A DNA stretch of 64,000 nucleotides from Elusimicrobia bacterium HGW-Elusimicrobia-1 (lineage in GTDB: Bacteria; Elusimicrobiota; Endomicrobiia; PHAN01), in the NCBI GenBank assembly GCA_002841695.1, contig PHAN01000003.1, positions 164,849 through 228,848 of the forward strand, given 5' to 3'. The notes under the pieces are model-generated. The model saw nothing but the letters and a program-made list of their open reading frames with translations. It did no database searches and was not told the origin of the DNA. The translations under genes were made by a program, and so were the position numbers. How positions within the stretch are numbered: the first letter of the stretch is position 1; the number at the start of each line of letters is the position of its first letter. Positions 4,598-21,231 of this stretch are shown piece after piece.

Positions 4598-4634
4598 TTG
4601 ATTCCGGGCGGATTAAGCCGTGTTTAGCATTGAT

Positions 4635-4663: not shown

Positions 4664-4703
4664 CTGAAAAGATGAAACAGAAACAGTAACACAGAGGGGT
4701 AAA

Positions 4704-5777: not shown

Positions 5778-5877
5778 AATCAACACACCCCGACGGAAAC
5801 GACCCGCGTTATTGCCGCACGACACTTGTTGACGATATAAAACACTCGCCGTCCTTGAGTAGGCACAAAGAACAAAG

Positions 5878-6585: not shown

Positions 6586-6786
6586 ATCTTGGATGCCGCC
6601 TGCGCCGAAAGATGCCGTGCTCTGAATCAGTGTGATGGTTGAGCCCCGCGCCGACGATATGCTATACTGGCCGCAAAGCGTTACTAAGGAAAAATCGCTC
6701 CGAGCCCCGAATCGTTTGGCGATGTACAAATCTAATAGAACCGCGCGGCAGAGCGTGACGTCCGTTGCGGCAAGGAGGATACGCAA

Positions 6787-7245
6787 ATGAAAGTTCCGGA
6801 ATACATCACAAAGGAAGAAGTCCGTCGCGTCTGTCGGGAACTGGGCATCCGGGACTGGTCTATTCTGAAGGAACCCGTCATTCCTGCGAAGGAAGCGGAA
6901 GCGGTTCTTCGCGCACTCGATGTTCCTTCGATGAATGTCGATCTTTCCGTCTTCAAATCGGGTCTTGAAGTCGAGTTGGAGCATGGCACTCGCTATCCCG
7001 AGGCCAATGTCACGAACAACCACCCCATCATCACGGGCCGAATCGTCGTTGCTCATCTGAAAGAGTCGATGGACTACTACCTCAGACTTGCCGTTGCGGA
7101 GGCGGAGGGCGATTTGCTTTCCGCGATTCTTTCCGGAGACGGCAAACGCGCGGCACGAAAGCTCCGTGCCCTCGCCGAAGCTCGCGCCGAAGTAGCCCGC
7201 GCTGAGCAAACGCAGTTGGAAAATATAACCAAACCGGAGAATTAA
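6787..7245 (+). CDS. hypothetical protein
   Basis: Strong RBS 'aaggagg' 6 nt upstream. Preferred over the 306-aa antisense ORF 6472..7392. Confidence 0.45.
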   Translation: MKVPEYITKEEVRRVCRELGIRDWSILKEPVIPAKEAEAVLRALDVPSMNVDLSVFKSGLEVELEHGTRYPEANVTNNHPIITGRIVVAHLKESMDYYLRLAVAEAEGDLLSAILSGDGKRAARKLRALAEARAEVARAEQTQLENITKPEN

Positions 7246-7255
7246 GGAGAGACCG

Positions 7256-7657
7256 ATGAAAACAAGAATGGGTTTGTGGATTGACCACAGAAAAGCCGTC
7301 ATCGTGGCCGTTACGGACAAAGGGGAAGACACAATACTGATATTGTCGAAAGTGGAAAAGCATCTCCAGCGTTCCGGCGATTCGTCCCGCAAAGGTTATG
7401 CATCGCGGCAGGCGCCCGCGTCCGATAGTCGCCAGAGAATGTTTACAGGGCATATCAACGTTTACTACGATGCTATAATTGCGTGTCTTCGCGCCGCGGA
7501 ATCCATTCTGATATTTGGTCCCGGCGAGGCAAAAGGCGAACTGAAAAAACGTCTTATAAAAAGTAAACTGGGCGGACGCATCGCAGGGGTTGAAGCAGTC
7601 GGCAATATGACGGATAACCAGATTGTGGCTAAGGTTCGCCGGCGCTTCGCTAAGTAG
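7256..7657 (+). CDS. hypothetical protein
   Basis: RBS 'aaggagag' 7 nt upstream; sits 11 nt after the previous gene. Confidence 0.45.
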   Translation: MKTRMGLWIDHRKAVIVAVTDKGEDTILILSKVEKHLQRSGDSSRKGYASRQAPASDSRQRMFTGHINVYYDAIIACLRAAESILIFGPGEAKGELKKRLIKSKLGGRIAGVEAVGNMTDNQIVAKVRRRFAK

Positions 7658-7770
7658 CGTTTGGCAATGTGGGTCGAGGCGGAATCATCCCGGGAAGTCG
7701 GATTGGTGAGAAGATAGGCCGCTAAAAATCGCGAAGTTTTTATGTAAACGATAAATACCCCGAATTTCGC

Positions 7771-7870
7771 GTGGTTTTTTAGTGGTTTTCGAGTGGTTGC
7801 CCCAGTGGTTTTCGTGTGGTTTTTGTGTGGCGTTCGGGTGGTGATTTATAGTGGATTTGGGGTGGTTTTG
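7771..7870. repeat. array of ~9 phased GTGG(T)TTT-N repeats (period 11-13 bp) upstream of the copy-3 promoter
   Basis: gtggtttttta / gtggttttcga / gtggttgcccca / gtggttttcgt / gtggtttttgt / gtggcgttcgg / gtggtgatttata / gtggatttgggg / tggttttg. Confidence 0.6.
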
Positions 7871-7895
7871 AAGCTAAAAAATAGCTAAGAATGGC

Positions 7896-7924
7896 TTGAA
7901 TTACGGTCACTGAAAATGTATACT
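7896..7924 (+). promoter_or_regulatory. sigma70-type promoter TTGAAT-17-TGn-TATACT (copy 3)
   Basis: ttgaat at 7896-7901, 17-nt spacer, tatact at 7919-7924. Same architecture as 4635-4663. Confidence 0.55.
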
Positions 7925-7965
7925 CTGAAAAGATAAAGCAATAAAATATCACAGCGGGGTCCGAT

Positions 7966-8043
7966 GAGAGCATCAAAGCTTTCAACGGGGGGAATTGTAA
8001 TCGCCCGGGCGTCTATTGGCGCCTCGGGCTTTTTTATTTTATG
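7966..8043 (+). pseudogene. truncated third copy of the paralog leader (26 codons), ends ATGA-overlapping the HNH gene
   Basis: 'MRASKLSTGGIVIARASIGASGFFIL*' aligns to paralogs 1 and 2 through the hairpin/T-tract (8002-8040). Similarity stops exactly after 'ttttttatttt' at 8040, where 'atgattaaaccc' begins. Confidence 0.55.
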
Positions 8044-8736
8044 ATTAAACCCGGCGATGTAATTTCTTATCAAACTATGTGTCAGGAAGAAAAATTTAGT
8101 TTACAAAAAGGTATGAATTATCACCTCGCACCTGGCTATAGTGTCATTTTGATGAGCACACAAACTGGTGCGCCATATTCAGATCGCGTCGAGGGTAATG
8201 GTAAAACGCTTATTTATGAGGGGCATGACATCCCTAAAACCAAAGGGGTCGATGATCCGAAAAAATATGATCAGCCTATGAAAAATCCAAGCGGGTCATT
8301 GACGCAAAATGGAATGTTTTTTAAGGCGGCTGGCGAGTATAAAAAGAACGCCAAAAGTCCAGAACTCGTTAAGGTTTATGAAAAAATCAGGCCTGGTATT
8401 TGGGCATACAATGGATTGTTTGAGCTTCAAGATGCTTGGATGGAAAGTGATGGCCGCCGTGACGTGTTTAAGTTTAAATTGGCAATCACGGACGAATCAC
8501 TAAGTGAAAAGAATGCTGAGCAGTCAGATATTGATCATACTCGTATAATTCCGTCGGAAGTCAAGCGTATAGTTTGGGCACGTGATAAGGGTAAGTGTGT
8601 CGAGTGTGGTGCGGTCGATAATCTTCATTTTGACCATATTATTCCTTACAGTAAAGGTGGCTCTTCGCGCGACGCAGAAAATATCCAACTTCTTTGCGCG
8701 AGACATAATTTGGCAAAGAGGGATAGGATTGGATAA
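8041..8736 (+). CDS. SRA-like domain + HNH endonuclease (putative modification-dependent type IV restriction nuclease)
   Basis: C-terminal HNH ('CVECGAVDNLHFDHIIPYSKGG...NIQLLCARHN'). The N-terminus 'GDVISYQTM...HLAPGYSVILMS...LIYEGHD...DQ...N' resembles the SRA/YDG base-flipping pattern (G.H..GI...A.SIVLSG...YTGSGG). Confidence 0.55.
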   Translation: MIKPGDVISYQTMCQEEKFSLQKGMNYHLAPGYSVILMSTQTGAPYSDRVEGNGKTLIYEGHDIPKTKGVDDPKKYDQPMKNPSGSLTQNGMFFKAAGEYKKNAKSPELVKVYEKIRPGIWAYNGLFELQDAWMESDGRRDVFKFKLAITDESLSEKNAEQSDIDHTRIIPSEVKRIVWARDKGKCVECGAVDNLHFDHIIPYSKGGSSRDAENIQLLCARHNLAKRDRIG

Positions 8737-8752
8737 TATCAGAGGGCTTGCT

Positions 8753-9151
8753 ATGAATATTTCCGAGTTTATTAGGTTCGACAATCTTGTTTTGTTGCCA
8801 GCTTTGCTGGCTGTATTGAAGAAGTTTTATGACGCGGCTTTGAGGTATCAGACGTATCATTTCAAGGAATATTTTCTGGTCCCCACGCGTTTCGAGCGGT
8901 GGCTTATGCATGTTGGATTGCTCGGCATGTGTTTTTGTATCTGTTTTTCGTTTACTGCAAAGAGTATTCTTGTGTTGCGTGAGTATATGTGGTTTATCCA
9001 ATTTATTTGCGTTTGTGCGCTTAATGTTGCTGTTATAAGTTGTTCTGTGATGCCTCCGCTTAGGGCTGGCAAAAGTGAATTTAAAATAATTTACAGTCGC
9101 AATATTCTGAGGGGTAAATATTATAATAAAAATGGGGGACTGTTTTTCTGA
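8753..9151 (+). CDS. hypothetical small hydrophobic protein (AT-rich)
   Basis: Hydrophobic segments (LLPALLAVL, GLLGMCFCICFSF). The track ORF starts at 8582 inside the HNH gene; the ATG at 8753 follows 'agaggg'. A competing antisense ORF exists. Confidence 0.3.
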   Translation: MNISEFIRFDNLVLLPALLAVLKKFYDAALRYQTYHFKEYFLVPTRFERWLMHVGLLGMCFCICFSFTAKSILVLREYMWFIQFICVCALNVAVISCSVMPPLRAGKSEFKIIYSRNILRGKYYNKNGGLFF

Positions 9152-9247
9152 GAGAGTGGGGGGGGAGACGCTAAACCACAACCCACGGCTCGGTTTTGTA
9201 ACTGTGGTGTTGTCGCTTGAATCGGGGCTGTTGAATGTGGAGGCAAT

Positions 9248-9784
9248 ATGTCAAAAAAGCAAATCGTAAAATCATCCCGCCCACCGGTTTTCGCCGCAAT
9301 AGATTTTGAAACTGCCGACTATTGGCACGACAGCGCGTGCTCTGTGGCTGTAGTGCGGGTGGAAGACAATAAGATTGTCGAGCGCGTCCATCACTACATC
9401 CGCCCCCCGCGCCAGGAATTTGTTTTTACGCACGTGCACGGTATCACGTGGGAAGATGTGGTCGATGCTCCCAAATTCTCTCAGATATGGCCCGACTTGC
9501 ACAAAGTAATTTCAGGCGTTGAGTTTCTTGCGGCGCACAACGCCCCTTTTGATCGTGCGGTGCTCGATAAATGTTGTAGTAAGGCGAATTTTAAACTGCC
9601 CGATGTTCCGTTTCAATGCACTATGCGTCTTGCCAGAGAGATTTGGGGGCTAAGGCCGACTAAATTATCCGATGTCTGCGCGCATTTAGACATACCGTTG
9701 CAACATCATAACGCTAAATCTGATGCCGAGGCGTGCGCAAAGATTGTGATCGCAGCCATGAAAGCAGGCGCGTCTTTGTCTTAG
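9248..9784 (+). CDS. DEDDh 3'-5' exonuclease (DnaQ/epsilon-like)
   Basis: Exo I 'AIDFETAD', Exo II 'HNAPFDRAVL' and Exo III 'HNAKSDAEACAKI' motifs. RBS 'ggagg' upstream. Confidence 0.7.
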   Translation: MSKKQIVKSSRPPVFAAIDFETADYWHDSACSVAVVRVEDNKIVERVHHYIRPPRQEFVFTHVHGITWEDVVDAPKFSQIWPDLHKVISGVEFLAAHNAPFDRAVLDKCCSKANFKLPDVPFQCTMRLAREIWGLRPTKLSDVCAHLDIPLQHHNAKSDAEACAKIVIAAMKAGASLS

Positions 9785-9832
9785 TAGATTTTTTGGGGGG
9801 CGGGTATTTTTGAAGGGAACAATCCTAAAAAC

Positions 9833-10288
9833 TCAACCTATCAGCCACGCCTCGCCGGTGGGTTTGCGGGGCTGGCGCTTGAAACCTTTCGTAGATTTTA
9901 CGGAGAGTTTTACTTTTGATTCGGCTTTCTGAGAAAATCCTTCGGTGTGAGATGATACCATCGCCTCGAACGCGTTTATCACGGCGAGGCGTTTTTTATC
10001 GTTCAGACGTTCAAGTCGTCGCCACATGGCCAGCCATCGCGTCAGACCCGGTTTGGGCGGATTCGGTAAATATCCTTCTTCATCGCCGGCAAATACTCCG
10101 AAGTCCGCGTTCAACGCCCGTGCCATTTTTGCTACCGTCACAATCGACGGCTTTTTGACGCCGCGCTCGACGTCGCTTATAAACTTCGCCGAAACGCCCG
10201 ACGCTTCGGATAGTTTTTCTTGAGTGATTCCGGCCTCTTCTCTCCGTGCTCTGAGCGTTTGCGCCACGTTTTTGTAGATTTTTTCCAT
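9833..10288 (-). CDS. XRE-family HTH transcriptional regulator
   Basis: 'LRARREEAGITQEKLSEASGVSAKFISDVERGVKKPSIVTVAKMARAL' is a classic Cro/C1 HTH. Confidence 0.7.
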   Translation of the reverse strand: MEKIYKNVAQTLRARREEAGITQEKLSEASGVSAKFISDVERGVKKPSIVTVAKMARALNADFGVFAGDEEGYLPNPPKPGLTRWLAMWRRLERLNDKKRLAVINAFEAMVSSHTEGFSQKAESKVKLSVKSTKGFKRQPRKPTGEAWLIG

Positions 10289-10464
10289 AAGTCAAATCCC
10301 GCCTTTGCGCTCGCCTTGCGGTTCACGCTTTAGGGCGATTATTTTACAATATCCCCGCCGCGTCACACTACCACCTAAAAGGCGTATTAAATATCGCCTT
10401 ATGGCTTGACTTTGCCCTCTTGATTTTCTATAATCTACGTAAATCCAGCAAGGGAGGGAAAGTC

Positions 10465-10884
10465 ATGAAAAAAGTTTTTACCCCATTGGTTTTGTTGATA
10501 CTTGTAGGTTTTATCGGATGCGCCACTGCCCCCGTCTGGCGGCCGCTTTTCCCGCCCGAATATAAAGTAAGCAAGGATTTTGACAAGGTTTGGCCCAAAA
10601 TAGTCGCCGCTATTTCGGAAGATTTCGATATTGCAATACTGGAAAAAGAATCTGGATACCTACAAACTAACTGGAAGGAAAAACGAGGTTTTCTCGGAGC
10701 CAAGGAAACAAGAACAAGGGTTTCCGTCAGGACTCAGAAGAAAACTGCCCCGCTTGAGATTGATGTCCGTGCCGAGAAACAGGGTTGGGAATCGTGGACG
10801 GAACAATGGATAGATAAGGGCAATGACGTTGACCTCGAAGAAAAAGTGCGTAATGCTGTTGCGCGGAAATTGATGGGCGACTGA
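10465..10884 (+). CDS. lipoprotein, unknown function
   Basis: 'MKKVFTPLVLLILVGFIGC' has a signal peptide and lipobox Cys. RBS 'gggaggg'. The track ORF starts earlier, at 10420. Confidence 0.5.
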   Translation: MKKVFTPLVLLILVGFIGCATAPVWRPLFPPEYKVSKDFDKVWPKIVAAISEDFDIAILEKESGYLQTNWKEKRGFLGAKETRTRVSVRTQKKTAPLEIDVRAEKQGWESWTEQWIDKGNDVDLEEKVRNAVARKLMGD

Positions 10885-10897
10885 TTTTAGGGGATTT

Positions 10898-13624
10898 ATG
10901 AAGAATGTAAAACATTTTCTTGTCGCCGTGGCGGTAGGGCTCACTATTTTTGCACCTCTTCGCGCCCAGCAAAAAGCCCCGCCACAAAACCTCGAAACAA
11001 AACCCATCGAATACGTTCCTGACGAGATACTTGTTATCTATAAACCCAACGCTTCGGAAAATCAAATATCTTCAATGCTTTCATCTAAGGGGTCGCTTGC
11101 CACCGGGGAGTTTTTTGCCACTCACGAGAAGAAGCGTAAAGTCAGAAGGATTAAAATAAAAAAAGGCAAGACGATTGCCGAGAGCGTCGCGGATTTCAGG
11201 AAAAATCCTCTCGTAGAACATGCTCAGCCGAACTACATTTATTATTTGAACGCAGTCCCAAACGACACTTCGTTTAATCAGCTTTGGGGGCTTAAGAACA
11301 CGGGGCAAACGGTCGACGGAACAGCCGGTACGGCGGATGCCGATATAGACGCCGATTATGCCTGGGATATAACGACGGGCACGACCGCCGTGGTGGTTGC
11401 GGTGATTGATTCGGGTATAGCGGCGGCCAATCCCGACTTGTCAGCGAACATTTGGGCCGGGAGTGGTTATGATTTTTTCGATGACGATTCGGATGCCACT
11501 GACTACAACACTCACGGAACGCATGTCGCGGGAACCATAGGCGCTGTGGGCAATAACTCAAGCGGAATAACCGGCGTTAACTGGCGCACAAAGATAATGC
11601 CCATAAAAGTTTTTGGCGTTTCGGGGAGCGGCTCCAAGAGTGATACGCTGATTAAGGGCATCAATCATGCTGTTTCCGGCGGGGCAAAAATAATAAATGC
11701 AAGTTTAAGCGGGTATGGCGGCTACGACGGAGATTTGACATATCAGGCAATACAGGCGGCGAAAAATGCCGGAGTTTTATTTGTCGCGGCAGCCGGAAAT
11801 GACGCCGACAACAACGATACCAAACCGAAATATCCGGCTTCTTACAACTTATCAAATATAATTTCTGTGGCCGCGACCGACCAGAACGATAATCTGGCGT
11901 CTTTTTCAAACTATGGGGCAACCAAAGTCCACCTTGCTGCGCCCGGCGTAAACATATACAGCACAGTGGCCATTTATGACGAGGGTTCATCAACTGTATA
12001 TAGCACGGGTTTTGACGGGGATTATACCGGAGATTGGTACACTAAAGGCACAAACAATACTTGGAGTATAAACAGTGAGCAGAGGGTTTCGTTACCTAAC
12101 AGTTTACAAGACAGCCTTGGCGGAAATTACACCGATAATCTGGTGTCTACACAGACCTTTGCTTACTGCAATACGCCCATCACTTACACCAAGGACAGTA
12201 AATACTTTTTGAACTTCAAAGTTAGATATGACCTTGAGAATAATTATGACTTTCTTGACATAATTGTTTCTGTTGATAAAACCAACTGGTTGCCGCTTTA
12301 TCTGTTCACGGGAAACAGTAATGACAGAAGAACGGGATCATCAGGCGGTGTTTTTTCACAGGCATCTATAGATATAACATCTTTGGTTGAAGTATATGGA
12401 GTGCGTTATTTCGGTTTCGGCATTTCATCCGACTCCTCATATAATTACGACGGGGTTTATATAGATGATGTTAGTGTTGTCCGTAAGCCACTAAGCATAA
12501 ACTCTTATTCTCTTGCTTACAAAGACGGCACCTCGATGGCCGCGCCGCATGTGGCCGGAGCGGCGGCACTTGTGTTGGCATCCAATCCAAACTTAAGTGT
12601 CGAACAATTGCGCGCAGTGTTACTCGGTGGCGTCGAACAGAAAGCGTCTTTGAGCGGTAAGGTTTCGACGGGAGGGCGTCTGAATGTATTTAAGGTGATG
12701 TCTATACCCGTTGCTCCGTCGGGAGTGGCGGGCGCGGCGCTTTCTACATCCTCAATACGATGGACTTGGAACGATAACTCCGTCAATGAGAAAAAATTCA
12801 TAGTCAAAAATGCGGCGGGGGGAACCTTGGTAGAGGTTTCGTCTAATATTGTGCAGTGGGTTCAGGGAGGACTGTCCCCGAATACGTCTGCCAGTGTGTC
12901 TATAGCGGCATACAACGACGCGATATCCGACTACAGCGAGTCATTCTGGTATCAGTGGTCATCATTGCTTTCCGGTCAGGTCTACACCCTCGCCAACCCG
13001 CCTGTGCAACCAGCCGTTTCCTCCGCTTCCAAAGCGGGCGGTATTGCGCTTTCATGGGGCGCCAACGGGAATCCCTCGCAGACCCGCTGGCCGATACAAA
13101 GAGCAAAAAACGACGGCGATTTTTCAACTATCGTCGACTCCGACGATGCACTTACGGATATAACCTATACCGACCATGCTATAACAGGCGGCTCTACTTA
13201 TTATTATCGCATAGCCGCGCTGAACGGTGATACCGTTGCGTCATCTTTTGCCTTGACAGTTTCCACGTATATCTCCACGCAAGATCCTACGAACCCGTCG
13301 GAGGAACCGACACTTGCTCGCGGCGAGGCCGGGGTGCAGTATGTGAGCGCAGGCGTCGATAGGGGATATTTTAATCCGTCTGCCGGTGAAAAAGTAAATA
13401 TTTATTTCGTGCCTGCTGTCGACGGCGTCGTTAAGATAAGCATTACGCCTCTCGACGGAAGCGCGGCCTATACCGAGGAAAAAAATGTTTCTGCGGGCCG
13501 CTCCGCTTTCTTTGAGTGGCGCGGGACGTTTCACGGAGGAAGAACGGCGACAAGCGGAATATATCCTGCCTTTATTGAAGGCGCGGGAATCAGGAAAATA
13601 AAAAAGATATGCGTGATTCGATAA
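10898..13624 (+). CDS. subtilisin-like S8 serine peptidase with Fn3/Ig-like repeats and a T9SS-type (Por_Secre_tail/FlgD-Ig-like) C-terminal domain
   Basis: Catalytic triad motifs 'VAVIDSGI', 'HGTHVAGTIGA' and 'GTSMAAPHVAGAAALV'. N-terminal signal peptide. C-terminal 'GEKVNIYFVPAVDGVVKISITPLDGS...SGIYPAFIEGAGIRKIKKICVIR' resembles a type-A T9SS sorting domain. Confidence 0.75.
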   Translation: MKNVKHFLVAVAVGLTIFAPLRAQQKAPPQNLETKPIEYVPDEILVIYKPNASENQISSMLSSKGSLATGEFFATHEKKRKVRRIKIKKGKTIAESVADFRKNPLVEHAQPNYIYYLNAVPNDTSFNQLWGLKNTGQTVDGTAGTADADIDADYAWDITTGTTAVVVAVIDSGIAAANPDLSANIWAGSGYDFFDDDSDATDYNTHGTHVAGTIGAVGNNSSGITGVNWRTKIMPIKVFGVSGSGSKSDTLIKGINHAVSGGAKIINASLSGYGGYDGDLTYQAIQAAKNAGVLFVAAAGNDADNNDTKPKYPASYNLSNIISVAATDQNDNLASFSNYGATKVHLAAPGVNIYSTVAIYDEGSSTVYSTGFDGDYTGDWYTKGTNNTWSINSEQRVSLPNSLQDSLGGNYTDNLVSTQTFAYCNTPITYTKDSKYFLNFKVRYDLENNYDFLDIIVSVDKTNWLPLYLFTGNSNDRRTGSSGGVFSQASIDITSLVEVYGVRYFGFGISSDSSYNYDGVYIDDVSVVRKPLSINSYSLAYKDGTSMAAPHVAGAAALVLASNPNLSVEQLRAVLLGGVEQKASLSGKVSTGGRLNVFKVMSIPVAPSGVAGAALSTSSIRWTWNDNSVNEKKFIVKNAAGGTLVEVSSNIVQWVQGGLSPNTSASVSIAAYNDAISDYSESFWYQWSSLLSGQVYTLANPPVQPAVSSASKAGGIALSWGANGNPSQTRWPIQRAKNDGDFSTIVDSDDALTDITYTDHAITGGSTYYYRIAALNGDTVASSFALTVSTYISTQDPTNPSEEPTLARGEAGVQYVSAGVDRGYFNPSAGEKVNIYFVPAVDGVVKISITPLDGSAAYTEEKNVSAGRSAFFEWRGTFHGGRTATSGIYPAFIEGAGIRKIKKICVIR

Positions 13625-14544
13625 ATAATTTAAGAGTATTCACAAACAGATGGGCCATGTCGGCGGCAGTTGTATCCGCGCTTTTTTTTGCCGCCGGAAT
13701 TTGCCGGGCCGAAATACTACTTACAAAACCGCCGTCGGCCCGCCTTGCCGCAAGCGAGGTCTTCGCAGCCACCGACGGACTTCCGTCGTCTCTGCTCGTT
13801 AACCCGGCGATGATAGCCGTTTCAGATTACTCGCTCGAAACCTCGGTATCAAGAGGTTTTATGGGCGACGACGCATATTATTACGCGGGTGCGGTTAAAA
13901 ACTTTCAAAGAAAAGTCGACCAAAAGAACTTTGGCGATATCCGCGCGGGCATTTTCGTCGGTCACTATGATGGCGGTCCGCTTGAGTTTTATGACAGTTT
14001 GGGTCGTGCCCGTACGGTGAAAGCGCAAAGCGATTATATGGCCGCCATCGGCGTTAGCGCCGTGCGCGGCGAGGGCTCTATCGGAGCGGGCGTCAAGATT
14101 TATTCTTCTCGTCTCGCCGACTATGCCGCTGCCTCCGCGATTGCTTTTGATATAGGCACTATTTCCCGCGACCCGAAGAGTGATTTTTTTGTGGGGTTTG
14201 CCGTGAAAAATATCGGCTCGTCGATGAAATACATCACCGAGGAAGAAAAACTTCCTCTGACTGCGGCCTGTATCATCGGCGCGGCCGGGAAAAATTATAC
14301 TGCCGGCGTTAACATCCCATATAACGTGCGCGACGCGATACTTTCGCCAGAGGCGGGTGTTGAGGCGATTATCGACGGGACTTTTTTTCTTCGCGGCGGA
14401 TACAAAAGCAGTGCCGTCGAGACTTTCGCCGTAGGTTTTGGGCTTAATCTTGCCGCGCGTTCGCTCAGACTCGACTACACTATGGGCATAAACAAGATTT
14501 TTGAAAATACACACAGCATCTCGATTTCTTATTCGCCACGTTGA
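13609..14544 (+). CDS. outer-membrane beta-barrel protein, PorP/SprF-like (NPA motif)
   Basis: Signal peptide 'MSAAVVSALFFAAGICRA', then 'SSLLVNPAMIAVSD' resembling the PorP/SprF N-terminal 'NPAxAG' motif, followed by alternating beta-strand sequence. An alternative start lies at 13657. Confidence 0.4.
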   Translation: MRDSINNLRVFTNRWAMSAAVVSALFFAAGICRAEILLTKPPSARLAASEVFAATDGLPSSLLVNPAMIAVSDYSLETSVSRGFMGDDAYYYAGAVKNFQRKVDQKNFGDIRAGIFVGHYDGGPLEFYDSLGRARTVKAQSDYMAAIGVSAVRGEGSIGAGVKIYSSRLADYAAASAIAFDIGTISRDPKSDFFVGFAVKNIGSSMKYITEEEKLPLTAACIIGAAGKNYTAGVNIPYNVRDAILSPEAGVEAIIDGTFFLRGGYKSSAVETFAVGFGLNLAARSLRLDYTMGINKIFENTHSISISYSPR

Positions 14545-14579
14545 CAAAACGTGCAAGATTGTGTTTTGCATGGCACCGC

Positions 14580-14608
14580 TTGACACGCCCCGACCAGATT
14601 TGTAGAAT
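14580..14608 (+). promoter_or_regulatory. sigma70 promoter TTGACA-17-TGn-TAGAAT
   Basis: ttgaca at 14580-14585, 17-nt spacer, tgtagaat at 14601-14608. It drives a ~110-nt unit ending at the 14690-14727 terminator. Confidence 0.5.
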
Positions 14609-14689
14609 TATCTCGTATGAAGTAAATGGTCATGCGGGGGTTGGATGAAAGTTTGTATGCTTTCGGGGAAAAACGGTTCAAAAAAATGA

Positions 14690-14727
14690 CAGCCCGTGCG
14701 GCTTTCTGCCGCCGCGGGCTTTTTTGG
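14690..14727 (+). terminator. rho-independent terminator (4th copy of the leader hairpin family)
   Basis: AGCCCGTGCGGC-TTTCT-GCCGCCGCGGGCT followed by TTTTTT. Sequence-similar to the hairpins at 4740-4778 and 8002-8040. Confidence 0.6.
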
Positions 14728-14827
14728 TTTACGGTTGAACCATGATTGGTTGGAGTATTGCACGGAAAGTAGCAGTTCGTCTTTGCTGCTTACGCGGATA
14801 GTATAGTATTTGTGTGGTGGTAATGGA

Positions 14828-15289
14828 ATGATAACAGCAGAATCAAAATTACGCGTTGCTGTAAAAACCCTTCAGAGTGCTAGAAAAAAACTCCACGCCG
14901 ATTTCCCAGAATGGAATTTCACTCTCGACGGCAAGCTTATTGGTGACATTGGCGAAGCATACGCAAAAGCACATTTTAGCCTTGTAAAAATAGATAGTAA
15001 TAGTAAAGCTCACGACTTTAAGGCGCCCGACGGACGTCTTGTACAGGTCAAAATTACCCAAAAAAAGACATTGGGACTGGGGATCTCTGCTCCTACCTTC
15101 GACTATTTTATAGCTCTTTGCTTGAGTGAAAATGGAGATTTCCAAGTCGTTTACAATGGCAAAGGTTCTAGAGTGTATAAGCGTAAAGGGCACCCCCCGA
15201 AAAAATCCATTTCTGTAATAAAACTGAAAGAATTAAATAAGCAGGTGGATAAATCGGAAACAATTCCCAGTAAGCAGAACACCAAATAA
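14828..15289 (+). CDS. small PD-(D/E)xK-like nuclease-fold protein (cargo gene A)
   Basis: 'GDIGEAYAKAHF' is a helix with a conserved Glu; 'AHDFKAPDGRLVQVKI' gives D...QVK, a PD-(D/E/Q)xK-like arrangement. Alternative start at 14810. Confidence 0.3.
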   Translation: MITAESKLRVAVKTLQSARKKLHADFPEWNFTLDGKLIGDIGEAYAKAHFSLVKIDSNSKAHDFKAPDGRLVQVKITQKKTLGLGISAPTFDYFIALCLSENGDFQVVYNGKGSRVYKRKGHPPKKSISVIKLKELNKQVDKSETIPSKQNTK

Positions 15290-15426
15290 GTAAATGTACC
15301 GGATACTCGTTCCTCGTGACGATGGTTATTGTATCAAGTGTCTATGAAAATAACTCTAAAGGTTATCGGAGATATGCTTGTATCTTTAATTTAGTTTGTG
15401 GCCGCGAACGATAACTATGTATTCAC

Positions 15427-16404
15427 ATGATGGCAATAATAACCATGCCGACTGATGAAGAGCTGGAGCAAGCAAATAGATTTCGCACCTATCTGAACTA
15501 TCTCAGTGCAATTTCTGATTTTCTCGGAGATGTTTACGCTCACCCGGAAAGTATTATCAGTCCGATAGTACAGACATCAGTATTCCAATCAATCCAAGGC
15601 GGGCGTAGCATAGACACCGGAAGAATGGCTGAGCTATTACGCAACGCGTGGTTCACAGAGATTCAAATGAGAATTTCTGCTCAGTATGATGAATTCGTTT
15701 CTTACTCCAACCATTGGATACCCGTTCAAGCTTATTACGCAAGCTATTTGGCCCTCCGCGCCTATTTCAATGCAAGCGGACAAACTGTTGGACGAGAGCA
15801 TGGTTCAAATCTTAAGGCGATTGCCGAGGAAATTAGTCGCCGACCGCTTTTATACCCTCAACCTTGGCGTGTGGTTTGTGCCGGTAATCCTGAAACTTCA
15901 GATTGTCAACTGCGCCATCTCCCGAATGATGTCACCGTCTCTCCAATTTCAAGTCTCATGTCAAGTTGGCGAGTTTCATTTTGGGATTCTTATGCTAAGT
16001 TTTTAAGAACTACACGCCTGCGCCATTTGCAAAAGCAATGCGATGATTGGAAGGAATCTAACAATCGCAAGCGTGTCTGCTCGAATGTCAAACGACGATT
16101 CATAGATAATTTATCTCCGACAACACTGTTCCATTGCCTTTATCGTTTACGTTTGCGCTCAAACTATTCCGATGCTGACTCGTTCCTTCTGTCTGTTGCC
16201 GGTTCTGCCGATGGTATATCTTTTCATGCCGCCTTGCGGAAAATTTGTTGGGGCACGCTCTTGATATTGGAAACTCTCACTGCCCGATATATCGGTAAGC
16301 TTGAATTTGAAAATATTGTCAATAGTTTCAGACGCTATGAACGTAGTGCGGTCTCTGATGAATTAATTGGCCTTCGATGGGAGAAGGTTCGTTCTCTGTG
16401 GTGA
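15427..16404 (+). CDS. hypothetical protein (cargo gene B), no recognisable motif
   Basis: 325-aa ORF in the AT-rich island with no identifiable domain. Confidence 0.4.
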   Translation: MMAIITMPTDEELEQANRFRTYLNYLSAISDFLGDVYAHPESIISPIVQTSVFQSIQGGRSIDTGRMAELLRNAWFTEIQMRISAQYDEFVSYSNHWIPVQAYYASYLALRAYFNASGQTVGREHGSNLKAIAEEISRRPLLYPQPWRVVCAGNPETSDCQLRHLPNDVTVSPISSLMSSWRVSFWDSYAKFLRTTRLRHLQKQCDDWKESNNRKRVCSNVKRRFIDNLSPTTLFHCLYRLRLRSNYSDADSFLLSVAGSADGISFHAALRKICWGTLLILETLTARYIGKLEFENIVNSFRRYERSAVSDELIGLRWEKVRSLW

Positions 16405-16502
16405 GATTTGCGCGTGCCGAGACCATTTAGAACTAAAGTTGTAATGATCAGGGTAAAGGTTATTGGGAACGCGATAGTAAACAAAGGAGGGTGATTACTA
16501 TT

Positions 16503-17291
16503 ATGATAGAATTATTGAAGCGTTGCGCTATGAATTATTCGACACTGTCTTGCTGCCATCCGCAACCCCATACGTGCGATTGTCCCTCCTGTTTCCACGA
16601 CGGTTTTCGTGGGGGAAAAGATATATATAATTGTCCCAAAAAGGTTAATTACTACGTCATAAATTATGGCCCATCCTTTGTCAGTGAAATCTATCATTAT
16701 TTAAGCAATTCTCAAATTCTTGAAAATAATTTCATGAACAAGAAAATAAAAATATTGTCATTAGGATGTGGTTTCGCCCCAGATTTTTTGGCTGCCACTA
16801 AGTATATTTCAGACAATGACTTATCAATGAGCATTGATTATCATGGAATAGATATGAACGATAGTTGGAAATCCGCAAGATATGAGCTCACAGGTGCCCG
16901 ATTTTCGACTGACGATGTAAGCGTGAATATCGATCTTTCGGGCTATGATATTGTGATAATAGGCAAATTGTTTTCAACGCTTATGAAAAATTCCCTTGGG
17001 GGCAAATTTCTTGACACGTTTAGATGGGCGGTATCAAGTCAACTTAAGAAAAGTGCTTTTGTTATTTTTAATGACATCAATAGTCGGAATAAGGGGCGGG
17101 ATGTATTTCATAACAGAGTGTGTGACCTTTTTACTAGCGTTCGTCAATATTATTGCGATGATCCTCCATACAAAGGCGCGAGTTGGATACCAATCCCAGA
17201 GAATCATATTGTTTGTAGTATTCCTATTGGTTTTGAGCACAGCCCGCTGAGAGAAATAAGACAAAGCGTATTTTTTGAGTATAAAAAATAA
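16503..17291 (+). CDS. Zn-ribbon + class-I SAM-methyltransferase-like protein (cargo gene C)
   Basis: N-terminal Cys cluster 'CCHPQPHTCDCPSCFH...CPKK'. 'KILSLGCGFAPDF' is Rossmann motif I (hh(D/E)hGxGxG); 'YHGIDMN' and 'DIVIIG' fit motifs II and IV. RBS 'aaaggagg'. The track start is GTG at 16491. Confidence 0.4.
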   Translation: MIELLKRCAMNYSTLSCCHPQPHTCDCPSCFHDGFRGGKDIYNCPKKVNYYVINYGPSFVSEIYHYLSNSQILENNFMNKKIKILSLGCGFAPDFLAATKYISDNDLSMSIDYHGIDMNDSWKSARYELTGARFSTDDVSVNIDLSGYDIVIIGKLFSTLMKNSLGGKFLDTFRWAVSSQLKKSAFVIFNDINSRNKGRDVFHNRVCDLFTSVRQYYCDDPPYKGASWIPIPENHIVCSIPIGFEHSPLREIRQSVFFEYKK

Positions 17292-17294
17292 CTT

Positions 17295-18230
17295 ATGATA
17301 ATAAGTGCCAGTCGGCGCACAGATATTCCCGCCTTTTATTCTGAATGGCTGTTTAATCGGTTTAGAGAGAGCTATTTGTTGGTGAGAAATCCCATGAATA
17401 TTCATCAGATAAGCCGTATTAATTTATCGCCACAGTTGATTGATTGTATCGTATTCTGGACAAAAAACCCAGCAGGAATGCTTAATAGATTGAACGAATT
17501 AAGGGGTTACGATTACTATTTTCAGTTTACGATTACCGGGTATGGTAAGAGTTTGGAGCCTAATGTGGCGGCACTCAATCAGAGGTTGGATATTTTTAAG
17601 ACTTTATCTGATAAAATAGGCAAAAAACGAGTAATTTGGCGTTATGACCCGATAATATTTTCAAACGATTTTGACGTTCAATATCACGTAAAAATGTTCA
17701 AGTATATCGCACAAGAGTTGGAAGGTAAAACCCAAAGGTGTGTTATTAGTTTCGTGGATTTTTATAAAAAAATACTGAAAAATATGTCATCAGTTGGACC
17801 GGCTAATTTCGATAATGCTTACTTGTTTGAAGTTGCAAATGCCCTGTCGAACGTTTCTTCGAGACATAATATAGAATTGACAAGTTGTGCTGAAGAAGTC
17901 GATCTTGCCAAATACGGGATATCCCATGGTAAGTGCATTGATGATAAACTGATCGAGGAAATCTTTAATATTCGATTAGATATTGCCAAAGATAAAACGC
18001 AAAGAGAAGAGTGCGGTTGTGTTGCCAGTATTGACATCGGTGCTTATAACACATGCCCCAACGGGTGTTTGTATTGTTACGCTAATTATGATATGAATAA
18101 GGTTCGGCATAACTATTCTTTGCATGACCCCGAGTCCCCACTCTTGTTTGGAGATATTGGGGCTAACGATAAAATAACAGAAAGAAAATTAAAAAGTTGT
18201 AAGGTGTATCAAAGGGGTTTGTTTTCTTAA
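17295..18230 (+). CDS. DUF1848-like protein with C-terminal Cys cluster (cargo gene D)
   Basis: The N-terminus 'MIISASRRTDIPAFYSEW' matches, as I recall it, the characteristic start of the DUF1848 family. The C-terminus 'CGCVASIDIGAYNTCPNGCLYCYAN' is a Cys-rich putative metal/Fe-S site. Starts 4 nt after gene C. Confidence 0.45.
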   Translation: MIISASRRTDIPAFYSEWLFNRFRESYLLVRNPMNIHQISRINLSPQLIDCIVFWTKNPAGMLNRLNELRGYDYYFQFTITGYGKSLEPNVAALNQRLDIFKTLSDKIGKKRVIWRYDPIIFSNDFDVQYHVKMFKYIAQELEGKTQRCVISFVDFYKKILKNMSSVGPANFDNAYLFEVANALSNVSSRHNIELTSCAEEVDLAKYGISHGKCIDDKLIEEIFNIRLDIAKDKTQREECGCVASIDIGAYNTCPNGCLYCYANYDMNKVRHNYSLHDPESPLLFGDIGANDKITERKLKSCKVYQRGLFS

Positions 18231-18297
18231 ATTTTTTTTTGACATCCCGCCGGAAAGTTCAATTTAAAGCCCCCCAAAAACGTCTCTTAAAAAACCC

Positions 18298-18326
18298 TTG
18301 ACTTCCGGTAGATTTTTTATTACAAT
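18298..18326 (+). promoter_or_regulatory. sigma70 promoter TTGACT-17-TACAAT followed by a palindromic operator-like site
   Basis: ttgact at 18298-18303, 17-nt spacer, tacaat at 18321-18326. Inverted repeat atacatgta-caaca-catgtatat at 18327-18350. Confidence 0.45.
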
Positions 18327-18382
18327 ATACATGTACAACACATGTATATGTAATTAATTAAACCCCATTGGGGGATTCTACC

Positions 18383-19324
18383 ATGAATGCGCAAAGATTA
18401 AAAAAGCGTTTACCTAGTTCAGATGAAACTCAACCGTCACAGAAGATTTGCCGGATCGTAGCCACGCCGGAAGCCGAAAAAGACCTTCGTCAAAATGTGG
18501 ATAGACGGATAGATGAACTGGTTAAACGTCGTAGTGCCCAAGCCGTTGATATCGATAAGGCGGCCGGAGAGCAAAAAACTATAAGCCCTAAAGATGAGGC
18601 CACTGTGGTCAAGAAAATCAAACAACTGAATGATAAGTATTTTGCCGCAAATATTATTGAACACACTGTATGTAAAGAGCGCCGTCTCGCCCTTGGTCAG
18701 GTAAAGAAGATAGCGGGGCTTACTCGACGTCAAATAATATACTGGCAGTCAGTAGATGCGATGTTTTTTGGGCAGGAGGGCGCTTATGACCCTCGGAGAT
18801 TTTCCATTGGCGATGTTATCAAGTTGATGATTATAAAAGAGATTAAGCAAAACACGGGCATACCGCCGAAAAGATTAAACAGGTTTGTCTCGTGGATTCA
18901 AAGATATAACATCGTCGACGCCCGTCTTCACGATTTTTCCGTCGGGCGGGATATTTTTCTTTATTCGGATTTAAAGTCAATCTGGTATTCCGGTCACGGC
19001 GTGGACGGTCGGGTCCCGCAGAAATGGGGAGATAAACCGATTGTCCTTATGCCGCTCAATGATATTTTCAAAAAAGTATTGCTTAATCCTGCGGTTTTCT
19101 CCGATAAGTTTCGAGTCGAGAAACAGGGCGAGCAGTTTGTTTATTTTATAAACGGCAAGAAGTTCGATTTTGCGTCGTATAAGAATCATCCGAACCCGGG
19201 CGGACTCAAATTAACACTTCAAAAATCCGACTTGCCTATAGTTTTCAACTATCGAGTAAAGAAATACGCACTTCATAGCACTGATGGCGGAGGCCTTGTA
19301 CTGAAAAACGCTGAGTCAAAATAG
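18383..19324 (+). CDS. hypothetical protein with MerR/excisionase-like HTH segment (cargo gene E)
   Basis: 'LGQVKKIAGLTRRQIIYWQSV' resembles a MerR-superfamily HTH. RBS 'ggggga' 7 nt upstream of the ATG. The track start is TTG at 18368. Confidence 0.4.
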   Translation: MNAQRLKKRLPSSDETQPSQKICRIVATPEAEKDLRQNVDRRIDELVKRRSAQAVDIDKAAGEQKTISPKDEATVVKKIKQLNDKYFAANIIEHTVCKERRLALGQVKKIAGLTRRQIIYWQSVDAMFFGQEGAYDPRRFSIGDVIKLMIIKEIKQNTGIPPKRLNRFVSWIQRYNIVDARLHDFSVGRDIFLYSDLKSIWYSGHGVDGRVPQKWGDKPIVLMPLNDIFKKVLLNPAVFSDKFRVEKQGEQFVYFINGKKFDFASYKNHPNPGGLKLTLQKSDLPIVFNYRVKKYALHSTDGGGLVLKNAESK

Positions 19325-19399
19325 AAGTCGAATAAAAATATTTCCAAACACTTTCTCTGTTCGTAATAACTAAACGGGAATCAGTCCCGTGGGTGTGAG

Positions 19400-19454
19400 C
19401 CGACAGAGCAGGGTATGCTTGAGGAAAAGCACGCACCCGCTCTGTCGGTTTTTA
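19400..19454 (+). terminator. rho-independent terminator
   Basis: CCGACAGAGC ... GCTCTGTCGG stem followed by TTTTTATTTT. Confidence 0.55.
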
Positions 19455-19491
19455 TTTTACGACGTGGCGGGGCGTAACTAAGGAGAGAAAT

Positions 19492-19674
19492 ATGGCAAAG
19501 ATAGTAAAGCGTTTTGTCTGGAAGTATATAACAGTAGAGGTTATGCGACGCGGGAACGGCTGGCCCGTGGTCAGAAAAATCAGGGTTCCCACGATTGCAC
19601 GCGTCGCTTGGTACTGGAAGGTCGGCAAGCCGCCGCGATATTACCCTTACCACAGCCGCCGTCGTCGTCGGTAA
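19492..19674 (+). CDS. small basic hypothetical protein
   Basis: Strong RBS 'taaggagag' 6 nt upstream; 60 aa, Arg/Lys-rich. Confidence 0.35.
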   Translation: MAKIVKRFVWKYITVEVMRRGNGWPVVRKIRVPTIARVAWYWKVGKPPRYYPYHSRRRRR

Positions 19675-19718
19675 AATCGGCGGAGGATTTTGTATCCGCC
19701 TCAACAAAGGAGAAGTTT

Positions 19719-19901
19719 ATGGAAAGAAAACTACTAAAAGTCGCCGAGGCCGCGGAATATCTTGGCACGACGGAAGGCACGCTTTACGTCTGGGTTTGCA
19801 GGAAACGCATCCCTCATATAAAAATGGGCCGCAAGTTGATGTTTGACGTCTCGGATTTGGAGAAATGGATAGCATCGCAGAAAATCCCCGCGGAATCGTG
19901 A
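19719..19901 (+). CDS. AlpA/Xis-family excisionase-type HTH protein
   Basis: 'KVAEAAEYLGTTEGTLYVWVCRKRIPHIKMGRKLMFDVSDLEKWI' matches the phage excisionase/AlpA HTH_17 pattern. RBS 'aaaggag'. The track ORF starts at 19608. Confidence 0.6.
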   Translation: MERKLLKVAEAAEYLGTTEGTLYVWVCRKRIPHIKMGRKLMFDVSDLEKWIASQKIPAES

Positions 19902-19946: not shown

Positions 19947-21197
19947 TTGAGGGGGTATATTATGAGATTATTCAAAAAATGTTCTCATTGCCGGAGCCAG
20001 TTCGCGGCGACGAAGATAACCGCTGCCGCCGAAGCGGCCAAATGCCCCAAGTGCGGGGCGTCTCTTCGCGGTGCCCAGTGGTATATCGACTACTACGTGG
20101 GCTACGAGCGTAAGAGAGAGGCCGTCGGCACACAAAAGCGTTTCGCCGAGGAAGTCATAGCCAAGCGCCGCATCGAGATAAAAGAGGGGAAGTTCTTTGA
20201 CAGAAAAAAAGAGAGCGTGCACAGATTAAAAGAAATCCTCGACGACTTTCTGGCGTATTCCAAAACCAACAAGAAATCCTATGAGCGCGACATCGGACTC
20301 GTCAAGCAGCTTCTGACTTACTTCGACGGCTCCAAGCGCCTTGAGGCGGTAACGCCGATCCTCATCGAACAATACAAAGGCAAACGCCTCAACGCCGACG
20401 GAAGAAAGCCCGCGACGGTAAACCGCGAACTCGCCTGCCTCAAGTGCGCTTTCAACTGGGCGATAAAAAACGCCAAGGCGTCGGCGAACCCCGTGCGAAG
20501 CGTCAAACTCTTGAAAGAAAACAATATGCGCTTGCGCTATCTCTCGCAAGAAGAAATCGGACGGCTTCTTAACGCCTGTCCGACGACGATAAGGCGCATC
20601 GTGACCGCCGCGCTTCACACCGGAATGCGCCTGGGGGAAATACTTCCTCTCAAATGGGAAGACATTGATTTCGCTCAGAATATCATCATCCTCAAAAATA
20701 CCAAAAGCGGCCGGATGAGAGAAATCCCGATAAACGGGGTTTTGCGCAAAACGCTCAATGAGTGCCGCAAAAACACGGATGAAGTCCACGTCTTCTGCAA
20801 CGAATCGGGCGTGCCTTATCGCAGTATCAATAGCATGTTCCAGCGCATAATCAAGAAAGCGGGCATTGCCGATTTCCGGTTCCACGATTTGCGCCATACG
20901 GCGGCATCATACATGGTCATGTTGGGCATACAACTTGCCACCGTAAGGGAGATTTTGGGCCATCAGAGCATCAATATGACGCTCAGGTATGCCCACCTGT
21001 CTCAGGAGCACAAACTCACGGCAATGGAGATGTTGGGGACGCGACTCGACACCCTTTCGACACCCCGACCCCCCGATGGCCAAAACACCCGAAAAGAGGG
21101 TGATGAGAAAAGTATTGATATTTCAGCATTTTTGAGTAATCTGGAGAGGTCGCCTAGTGGTTTAGGGCGGCGGTTTGCTAAACCGCTGTCCCGCTAA
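19947..21197 (+). CDS. int: tyrosine recombinase (phage-type integrase), C-terminal tail reads into tRNA-Ser
   Basis: Catalytic-domain motifs 'RLGEILPLKWEDIDF', 'HDLRHTAASYMVMLG' and 'LGHQSINMTLRYAHL'. N-terminal zinc ribbon (CSHCRS...CPKCG). The last ~18 codons (stop at 21195-21197) are tRNA sequence. Confidence 0.8.
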   Translation: MRGYIMRLFKKCSHCRSQFAATKITAAAEAAKCPKCGASLRGAQWYIDYYVGYERKREAVGTQKRFAEEVIAKRRIEIKEGKFFDRKKESVHRLKEILDDFLAYSKTNKKSYERDIGLVKQLLTYFDGSKRLEAVTPILIEQYKGKRLNADGRKPATVNRELACLKCAFNWAIKNAKASANPVRSVKLLKENNMRLRYLSQEEIGRLLNACPTTIRRIVTAALHTGMRLGEILPLKWEDIDFAQNIIILKNTKSGRMREIPINGVLRKTLNECRKNTDEVHVFCNESGVPYRSINSMFQRIIKKAGIADFRFHDLRHTAASYMVMLGIQLATVREILGHQSINMTLRYAHLSQEHKLTAMEMLGTRLDTLSTPRPPDGQNTRKEGDEKSIDISAFLSNLERSPSGLGRRFAKPLSR

Positions 21198-21231
21198 AGC
21201 GGGACCGGGGGTTCGAATCCCCCCCTCTCCG
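21143..21231 (+). tRNA. tRNA-Ser (anticodon GCU), long variable arm
   Basis: Acceptor GGAGAGG/CCTCTCC. Anticodon loop TT-GCT-AA in stem GCGGCGG/ACCGCT. Long variable arm GTCCCGCTAAAGCGGGAC. T-arm GGGGGTTCGAATCCCCC. Discriminator G. Confidence 0.8.

Follow-up and report, generated by a model that had tools for sequence, protein, structure and literature searches.

An integrase gene that reads through its own attachment site into tRNA-Ser(GCU) at the edge of a probable 25.9-kb genomic island of an Endomicrobiia bacterium

A probable integrative island lying 5' of tRNA-Ser(GCU)

The tyrosine integrase gene (int) analyzed here ends inside a tRNA-Ser(GCU) gene, within a stretch of 64,000 nucleotides (nt) of contig PHAN01000003.1 of Elusimicrobia bacterium HGW-Elusimicrobia-1 (positions 164,849 to 228,848; the whole stretch is called the window below). 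The reading that we favor, with a probability of roughly 85%, is that this locus is the attR site at which a 25.9-kb integrative genomic island joins the chromosome of an Endomicrobiia bacterium, and that the C-terminal tail of the integrase (Int) is a by-product of translation of the attachment site of the element, attP. Judging by the source names of the closest homologues of a heptosyltransferase of glycosyltransferase family 9 (GT9) encoded downstream of the tRNA, the host is an Endomicrobiia (Elusimicrobiota) bacterium.

The tRNA-Ser(GCU) gene is the only tRNA gene that ARAGORN reports in the window. It overlaps int by 55 nt (21143-21197), which correspond to 17 sense codons and the stop. 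As an initial reading made from the letters of the window alone (the sequence-only reading) had noticed, the open reading frame (ORF) terminates at a TAA inside the variable arm of the tRNA; both the ORF list and the ARAGORN coordinates place this codon (21195-21197) in the variable-arm loop, and the anticodon GCT (21177-21179) is read by int as an in-frame Ala codon. The relevant features are listed below; the ATG at 19962 is favored as the start of int on account of a GAGGGGG Shine-Dalgarno sequence upstream and of the gene calls on identical metagenome contigs.

19719..19901, + strand: xis, excisionase-type helix-turn-helix protein of 60 amino acids (aa); Pfam HTH_17 (PF12728), E=9e-16; gene call on identical contigs
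19962 (ATG)..21197, + strand: int, tyrosine integrase, 411 aa (start in the ORF list 19947, TTG, 416 aa)
21047..21065, + strand: CGACACCC-TTT-CGACACCC, 11-nt period, putative Int-binding sites of arm type on the int side
21139..21183, + strand: identity block (core) of attR, ATCT plus tRNA positions 1-41, direct repeat of attL
21142-21232, + strand: tRNA-Ser(GCU) as called by ARAGORN; the mature tRNA is 21143-21231, with acceptor stem GGAGAGG from 21143 and the discriminator at 21231
21143..21231, + strand: the same tRNA viewed as a recombinant gene, positions 1-41 and upstream DNA from the island, the rest from the host
21175..21181, + strand: anticodon loop TTGCTAA, probable location of the overlap (strand-exchange) region, judged from the ends of the identity blocks
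21184..21197, + strand: host-derived end of int, the last four sense codons (after a split Pro codon) and the stop, predicted to be exchanged on excision

The sequence-only reading had proposed that the cargo lies on the 5' side of the tRNA and that a direct repeat of the tRNA segment should mark the other attachment site. Inside the window there is no second copy: blastn-short found no further copy of the tRNA-Ser(GCU) segment longer than 12 nt, and a pattern of the full tRNA with up to 3 mismatches matched only itself. By walking upstream through contigs that encode the Mrr protein of the window (583-1455), we reached the expected repeat 4.8 kb left of its first position. The two copies of this direct repeat, ATCTGGAGAGGTCGCCTAGTGGTTTAGGGCGGCGGTTTGCTAAAC, match perfectly over 45 nt, one at window positions 21139-21183 and the other at L170 4631-4675 (45/45, BLAST E=4e-21), where the first position of the window is L170 position 9419 and attL thus lies at window coordinates -4787..-4743. 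The two copies are 25,926 bp apart, both on the + strand, with int and xis between them, and the repeat consists of ATCT and tRNA positions 1-41, so that its right end is 2 nt past the anticodon loop. The same repeat occurs in three metagenome contigs from different samples (L170 4631-4675, L171 4631-4675 and L172 4137-4181). Moreover, the Logan (k=31) contigs L177 and L178 start at 21154, which is where the last 30 nt (k-1) of the repeat begin, as expected if the assembly graph branches at 21183/21184. When attB is rebuilt from the left flank of attL and the window sequence starting at 21184, an intact tRNA-Ser(GCU) is called once more.

These observations suggest the following course of events. 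The Int of the island would have recombined attP, which overlaps the 3' end of int, with the host's tRNA-Ser(GCU) gene at its 5' half, strand exchange probably taking place in the anticodon loop. The island would thereby have come to lie 5' of the tRNA, supplying tRNA positions 1-41 and everything upstream, and the host 5' half with its native upstream region would have been left at the far end, attL, as a 41-nt fragment; int would then end at the first in-frame stop, the TAA in the host-derived variable arm. Excision would require Int and, presumably, the adjacent HTH_17 protein acting as excisionase (Xis), and would restore a tRNA with its own promoter while extending Int from 411 to 429 aa. 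Joining int to the sequence right of attL gives a predicted Int of 429 aa that ends in ...RRFAKQGEEKKPPTENPPSDGKTPTET / ...FAKQGEEKKPPTENPPSDGKTPTET before its stop, the integrated form of 411 aa ending in ...RRFAKPLSR. Only the last ~5 codons would be swapped; the whole fold (residues 1-362) would stay contiguous with 44 of the 49 codons of the tail. The reconstructed junctions are:

Predicted circular (attP) junction: …GAGTAATCT(core)AAGGCGAAG…, also written …TTTTTGAGTAATCTGGAGAGGTCGCCTAGTGGTTTAGGGCGGCGGTTTGCTAAAC/AAGGCGAAGAAAAAAAACCTCCGACGG…
Predicted empty (attB) site: …TTTGACAT ATCT(core)CGCTGTCCC…, also written …GCGATTTGACATATCTGGAGAGGTCGCCTAGTGGTTTAGGGCGGCGGTTTGCTAAAC/CGCTGTCCCGCTAAAGCGGG…

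Turnover at the same tRNA in related genomes and mobility of the island

Relatives of the locus were found by exact-protein look-up of GT9 and of its 95%, 87%, 76% and 75% relatives. Synteny with these relatives (75-95% identity) holds for the GT9/DUF4254/Wzy cluster downstream of the tRNA but not for the int side. In L179, where the GT9 protein is 95% identical, the DNA is 92.8% identical to the window from the 5' end of the tRNA onward; upstream of the tRNA lies a different xis-int pair, of which only patches of int align, at 66-69% DNA identity. That int is broken into at least 3 ORFs by in-frame stops, and it runs into the tRNA 5' end in the other frame (…EWRGRLVV, then stop). The second int type found in L179 (1-1554) is also present in L182 (1-101), which carries the 87% relative of GT9, and has an arm pair of its own, ACAGCCACA-AAA-ACAGCCACA, with an 11-nt period and the translation ATATKTATA. 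In L180 (Logan SRR29054604, with the 75% relative of GT9), only the 3' 58 nt of the tRNA are found (449-506, 100% identical to window 21175-21232); the fragment begins exactly at the T of TTGCTAA and is preceded by unrelated DNA with GACACC motifs (L180 1-520). It looks like the distal end of an element of the same family that used the same tRNA in the classical orientation.

According to the sequence-only reading, related genomes that lack the cargo and nevertheless carry an identical int over the tRNA would speak for a domesticated or fixed gene. The opposite was found: two related strains have a different int, and a third has a displaced 3' fragment. Since different ints occupy the same tRNA in sister strains, tRNA-Ser(GCU) is, by these comparisons, a recombination hot spot with turnover of elements, and the int described here is not a conserved domesticated gene.

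A number of results weigh against the integrative-island reading, or at least against an island that is still active. No empty attB was found among contigs with GT9 or its 75-95% relatives, all such sites being occupied or rearranged, and all of the ~10 contigs with the flanking genes also carry the island. The 59-nt attP junction of an excised circle is absent from IMG/VR, and there is no record of the 429-aa Int, the 90% cluster of Int consisting of a single member sequence. Transfer machinery is not evident in the cargo, and a consensus scan of 20700-21500, around the int tail, did not detect a sigma-70-like promoter from which the tRNA could be transcribed. That strand exchange takes place in the anticodon loop, moreover, is deduced from the ends of the identity blocks and by analogy with other integrases (PMC8371274). 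A metagenome scan with the GT9 protein for an empty site retrieved only three 51-58% relatives, without a tRNA.

These results would fit an island that integrated as proposed and is now an immobile remnant, the int-tRNA arrangement being stable and serving mainly to keep tRNA-Ser(GCU) expressed. The presence of the island in every contig recovered for the population, the failure to find an attB or attP junction, the broken int of the same family at this site in L179 (which demonstrates that decay in place occurs), and the fact that conjugation or packaging genes were not seen all favor such fixation. Against it, the 45-nt repeats and the 19-nt arm sites (described below) are perfectly identical on both sides, int has its complete set of catalytic residues and no frameshift, xis is intact, and the differing elements of the family at the same tRNA in close relatives indicate recent turnover. 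We consider fixation unlikely, though well short of negligible, and infer that the element may still be able to move. Its well-defined set of attP, attB, Int and Xis could also be adapted for integrating DNA in Elusimicrobiota and in related lineages that are uncultured.

The integrase and its putative excisionase

The Pfam Phage_integrase model (PF00589) matches residues 193-349 of Int with E=3.9e-33 and 115 bits (cut-off 27.1). The residues R223, K248, H308, R311, H334 and Y343, which make up the R-K-H-R-H/W-Y set, are invariant in an alignment of 20 sequences. The sequence-only reading had correctly identified the catalytic tyrosine in the LRYAHL motif (Y343) and the continuation of int beyond it; its estimate of ~55 aa for that continuation was too low, as 68 aa follow the tyrosine. 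The closest solved chain is 5c6k_A ('Integrase', E=4e-23), aligned up to residue 357, and 1aih and 1z1b were also matched. Int scores 123 bits against the NCBIfam XerA_Arch model, far under its cut-off of 220 bits.

From the N-terminus, Int consists of a CxxC..CxxC zinc ribbon, a beta-hairpin and helix, a SAM-like core-binding domain and the catalytic domain. In the predicted structure, the beta-hairpin and helix at residues 40-74 are the probable arm-binding domain. The zinc ribbon (residues 1-38, window 19962-20075) is placed ahead of this putative domain; it is also present in the relatives P0002-P0007, P0010, P0027, P0036 and P0092 and is missing from most of the clade.

The xis gene is located 61 nt upstream of int, an order also seen in L004 and L179. 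Its product scores 47.2 bits against the NCBIfam model TIGR01764 'excise' (cut-off 28.8) and is putatively the recombination directionality factor of the element.

The C-terminal tail of the integrase is probably translated attP

AlphaFold predicts the fold of Int with confidence up to approximately residue 362, and the predicted local distance difference test score (pLDDT) is <50 for residues 363-411. The drop coincides with a feature of the DNA: residue 363 corresponds to nucleotide 21048, the start of the first arm site. The tandem CGACACCC pair that begins there is found at only two places in 73 kb, both times on the same strand: in the int tail and ~107 nt inside attL. The attL-side pair lies at window coordinates -4636/-4625 and its 19-nt string is identical to that of the int-side pair; relative to the core, the pairs are at -92/-81 (int side) and +107/+118 (attL side). 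On the excised circle, the pairs would therefore flank the core on both sides, as the arm sites of lambda-like integrases do. The int-side sites are within the ORF, where they encode (L)DTLSTP. The suggestion of the sequence-only reading that an attP core is contained in the 3' end of int thus agrees with the position of both the identity block and the tandem arm-type pair (21047-21065) within the ORF. As there is no stop codon between the end of the fold (~residue 362) and the tRNA, int reads through arm sites, spacer and core, and its last 49 codons are made up of the arm sites, a 73-nt spacer, the core and the few host nucleotides to the first stop.

We compared this tail with those of related integrases. 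Equivalent (T)GGACACC-N4/5-(T)GGACACC pairs are present in relatives, where they are translated as MDTxMDT, DT.WTP or GH..GH / RHLYGHH depending on the frame, and in a Desulfobacterota clade with the classical layout the arm pair is found just after the stop codon of int. Such (T)GGACACC pairs also occur in both arms of five other elements whose ends were determined (see below). The deviant LDTLSTP of this Int parallels the deviation of its non-coding arm copy. Likewise, the 5' half of tRNA-Ser is translated in two frames among integrases, as ERSPSGLGRRFAKP and as RRGRLVV. Outside the segments constrained by the DNA, the tail is not conserved between the 57%-identical pair P0001/P0002, and within the family its length varies from ~0 to >100 residues. 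The fact that the same DNA is translated in differing frames by relatives indicates that the tail is translated attP. By this evidence from the family, it is the DNA that is conserved and not the peptide, and the 49-residue tail would be a by-product with no conserved protein domain.

The tail might instead have a function, for example as a regulatory extension, such that the swap between 411 and 429 aa alters the activity or directionality of Int. Integration does alter the last residues, the 'MDTIWTP' motif is widespread in the family, and in phage Mx8, where attP is within int, the new 3' end is reported to modify the specificity of the integrase (PMC6070905). This explanation is improbable given that the tail is predicted to be disordered, that its length and its residues vary as described, that the frame in which arm sites and tRNA are read differs from member to member, the integrases of the classical clade not reaching them at all, and that LDTLSTP deviates exactly as its non-coding counterpart does. 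The observation carries a caution for those who annotate integrase 'domains', as the seemingly conserved C-terminal motif (MDTIWTP and its variants) is the DNA arm-site pair in whichever frame happens to be open.

A clade of integrases with reversed orientation at tRNA genes

The 120 homologue clusters closest to Int are 42-59% identical to it and have a common fold. Their tails are sense translations starting from tRNA positions 1-4 in at least 36 of the 120 clusters, and antisense translations in 2. One example is P0002, an Int of 57% identity from an Elusimicrobia metagenome-assembled genome with other cargo, whose gene overlaps its own tRNA-Ser(GCU) by 55 nt. Recurrence in this protein and in the clusters mentioned shows that the overlap of int and tRNA is not a chance feature.

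In order to sample the clade, one genome per GTDB species was scanned with a clade-specific motif (TVNRE), which gave 80 loci from Elusimicrobiota, Omnitrophota, Planctomycetota, Desulfobacterota, Acidobacteriota and other phyla. A tRNA gene lies at most 300 nt from the int stop in 60 of them, co-oriented with int in 34 and convergent (the classical layout) in 26. In most of the co-oriented loci, the tRNA 5' end lies between about -160 and +75 nt relative to the stop. The tRNA is overlapped by 11 of the 34 ints, and two outliers, at +138 and +274 nt, may be truncated ints. In a neighbor-joining tree, the co-oriented ints form one large clade that includes the Int described here, the exceptions being L117 and L140 (one in each direction). 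The reversed layout is thus the norm for a large clade of integrases that occurs in Elusimicrobiota, Omnitrophota, Planctomycetota and further phyla, most of them uncultured. More distant viral relatives have other arrangements: no viral contig encoding a close relative of Int was found, the best viral matches are 30-44% identical and have the classical layout or no tRNA, and those at ~30% identity are in the classical convergent layout.

Five further elements could be fully bounded within 10-kb flanks:

L103: repeat of tRNA-Met positions 1-37, 35/37 identical, 6.9 kb, 5'-half type
L117: repeat of tRNA-Arg positions 1-42, 6.5 kb, 5'-half type
L114, L116, L126: repeat of the tRNA-Cys 3' half, 6.4-9.1 kb, 3'-half type

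In all five, the identity block covers the tRNA from the end nearest int as far as the distal edge of the anticodon loop, which it passes by 0-1 nt, so that in all six bounded elements the block ends 0-2 nt beyond the anticodon loop irrespective of tRNA or orientation. The two copies in L103 differ at 2 positions, which shows that the tRNA 5' half next to int is the element's own copy, a replacement of that of the host. The attL of the P0002 loci (L004-L006) was not found within the 10 kb at hand. In L004, the genes downstream of the tRNA encode a restriction-modification system; directly downstream of its tRNA-Ser(GCU), at 11273-11493, there are three and a half tandem units of 63 nt, each containing the 12-mer GTTTTTGAAGAG that is also present directly upstream of that tRNA, and no such units are found in L005.

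It is scarcely credible that the overlap is incidental, with int merely abutting a tRNA that is owned by the element or has its mobile DNA on the 3' side (the lipopolysaccharide-core cluster), for although GC content falls to 0.46 in the genes downstream of the tRNA (window 22-25 kb) and restriction-modification genes lie downstream in L004, the displaced fragment is a 5' half located upstream, the window has no 3' fragment downstream, the downstream cluster and not the int side is syntenic, and identity with the sister strain L179 starts at the tRNA.

Expression of the recombinant tRNA

Elements of this kind give an essential tRNA gene a different promoter and so pose the question of how tRNA and int are co-expressed. 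Because integration leaves the tRNA's native upstream region behind at attL, the recombinant tRNA would have to be transcribed from within or through int. A sigma-70 scan upstream of attL gave nothing relevant.

Inspection by eye revealed a string shared by the regions directly upstream of the tRNA, (C/T)TGAT-N16/17-(A/T)A(T/A)TCT: TTGATA-N16-TAATCT at attR (21113-21142) resembles CTGATT-N17-ATATCT on the native attL side (L170 4602-4634), and L179 and L182 have TTGATA ~22 nt before the tRNA. As a canonical -35/-10 promoter this string was rejected, being too close to +1.

One speculative consequence is worth stating. If the tRNA were released from the int transcript, cleavage by RNase P would fall 52 nt (17 sense codons) before the int stop and leave a non-stop mRNA, the product of which would be tagged through transfer-messenger RNA (tmRNA), keeping Int low; on the circle, where the tRNA is incomplete, the message would remain intact and yield the 429-aa Int. 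We regard this as a slim chance. If true, it would constitute a switch of integrase expression that is encoded in the attachment site and uses the target tRNA, with a logic akin to that of lambda sib retroregulation.

Cargo of the island and neighboring sequences

The portion of the island within the window is as follows:

1..19718, + strand: island cargo; the island extends a further 4.7 kb to the left, to attL

Genes in this portion encode a DNA methylase fragment, Mrr, a cupin, an SRA-HNH protein, an RNase_T-like exonuclease, an XRE repressor, an S8 subtilase (908 aa), a DUF6998 protein with likeness to a methyl-directed restriction enzyme, and a DUF1848 protein. To the left of the window, L170 encodes a Sll1717-type ATPase, a Dam-type methylase, DpnII and an N6_N4 methylase. 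By its gene content, the island carries a restriction-modification system of the DpnII type that includes Dam-like and N6_N4 methylases. No phage structural genes and no relaxase or type IV secretion system genes were found with Pfam, PHROGs, PADLOC and NCBIfam in most of the island ORFs, including all of the larger ones; these scans gave nothing but restriction- or defence-type, regulatory and unknown proteins. The island accordingly has the marks of neither a prophage nor an integrative and conjugative element, and in its gene content it looks like a defence-type island.

Several proteins in the cargo are uncharacterized, among them three paralogues that match no family and have repeated upstream regions. 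The 5' regions of the three genes (ORFs 1894-3435 and 4704-5777, and one near 7950) are 70-88% identical, the repeats being located at 1877-2384, 4687-5236 and 7947-8043, as well as at 4551-4614 and 7805-7868. Two of the three are preceded by iteron-like GTGGTTTTCGTGTGG repeats.

For the most part, the GC content of the island does not reach the ~0.52-0.57 that is typical of the window toward its right-hand end; it goes down to 0.385 at 16-19 kb, the exception being 5-8 kb with 0.55. Other dips are found outside the island, at 41000-44000 and 22000-25000 (0.44-0.46 as against ~0.53-0.57); the latter corresponds to the heptosyltransferase/DUF4254 genes right downstream of the tRNA, in the cluster that is syntenic in relatives. 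A 46-nt repeat, TTGTCATTGCGA(A/G)CCGC…GGTGG…GCAATC…, occurs in host DNA at 34998-35043 and 50341-50386 (78% identical) and may be a dispersed intergenic repeat.

Comparison with known systems

The island has the composition of the tRNA-gene (tDNA) islands collected in Islander, whose criteria are set out in PMC4383910: a full tRNA gene, a cognate fragment in the same orientation at the other end, an integrase inside and a length within 2-200 kb. The sequence-only reading had described the layout as the reverse of the common one, in agreement with the Islander counts of 159 islands with a 5' fragment versus 3760 with a 3' fragment (159/3919, about 4%; PMC4383910) and with the statement that 5' recombination is 'considerably less frequent' (PMC6563490). 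The present island is of the 5'-fragment ('reversed') configuration, the displaced fragment being tRNA positions 1-41 upstream of the intact gene. Its attP is centered on the anticodon (sublocation class A of Williams), the block ending 2 nt past TTGCTAA. Islands with 'reversed target orientation' were reportedly described by Zhao and Williams in 2002 (J Bacteriol 184:859), as related in papers that cite them. With the 5'-fragment islands of Islander (Hudson et al. 2015), the element shares the intact recombinant tRNA next to int, the displaced 5' fragment of like orientation at the opposite end and the anticodon-centered attP; here, the layout is the norm of the clade, with 34 of the 60 tRNA-adjacent members sampled.

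The location of the attP core and arm sites upstream of the int stop, inside the ORF, is a property shared with Mx8 and with SSV-type integrases. Mx8 is said to replace a long C-terminal segment of its integrase and to target the 3' side of tRNA-Asp. In Mx8 IntP/attP (Tojo et al. 1996; Magrini et al. 1999), as in this element, attP is within the int coding sequence and integration gives a new int 3' end and thus a new C-terminus (PMC6070905, PMC4383910). Unlike in Mx8, only the last ~5 codons would change here, the affected tail is predicted to be disordered and the tRNA's 5' half is used; the likeness considered is one of layout.

The pTN3-like integrases of Thermococcales have the tRNA 5' half as attB, and expression of the recombinant tRNA is attributed to the promoter of the integrase gene (PMC8371274). 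Targeting of the 5' half is common to these integrases and this island, although the hosts of pTN3 are archaeal. In SSV-type integrases, attP is inside int and exchange takes place at the anticodon loop (PMC8371274); these 'suicidal' integrases are split in two on integration, whereas the int described here stays whole. In contrast to both archaeal types, this Int has putative lambda-like arm-type sites and a separate excisionase.

In these respects, the element would resemble those of the lambda/P2/HP1 type, in which the core is at a symmetric stem-loop, tandem arm sites are present on both sides, the integrase begins with a beta-hairpin and helix, and Xis is the partner; the Int proteins of HP1 and lambda are also among the solved structures matched by this Int. 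Crossover at the anticodon loop, arm sites and an Xis partner are standard features of such systems. What sets this element apart from them is that the arm sites and core are inside the int ORF, that the target orientation is reversed and that part of the clade has an additional N-terminal zinc ribbon. The layout is rare yet already known, and its additional interest lies in the preference for the reversed orientation throughout a clade and in the translated-attP tail. The element is a clean and fully bounded case of integration at a tRNA gene in the uncommon 'reversed' manner, in a phylum for which hardly any mobile elements have been characterized.

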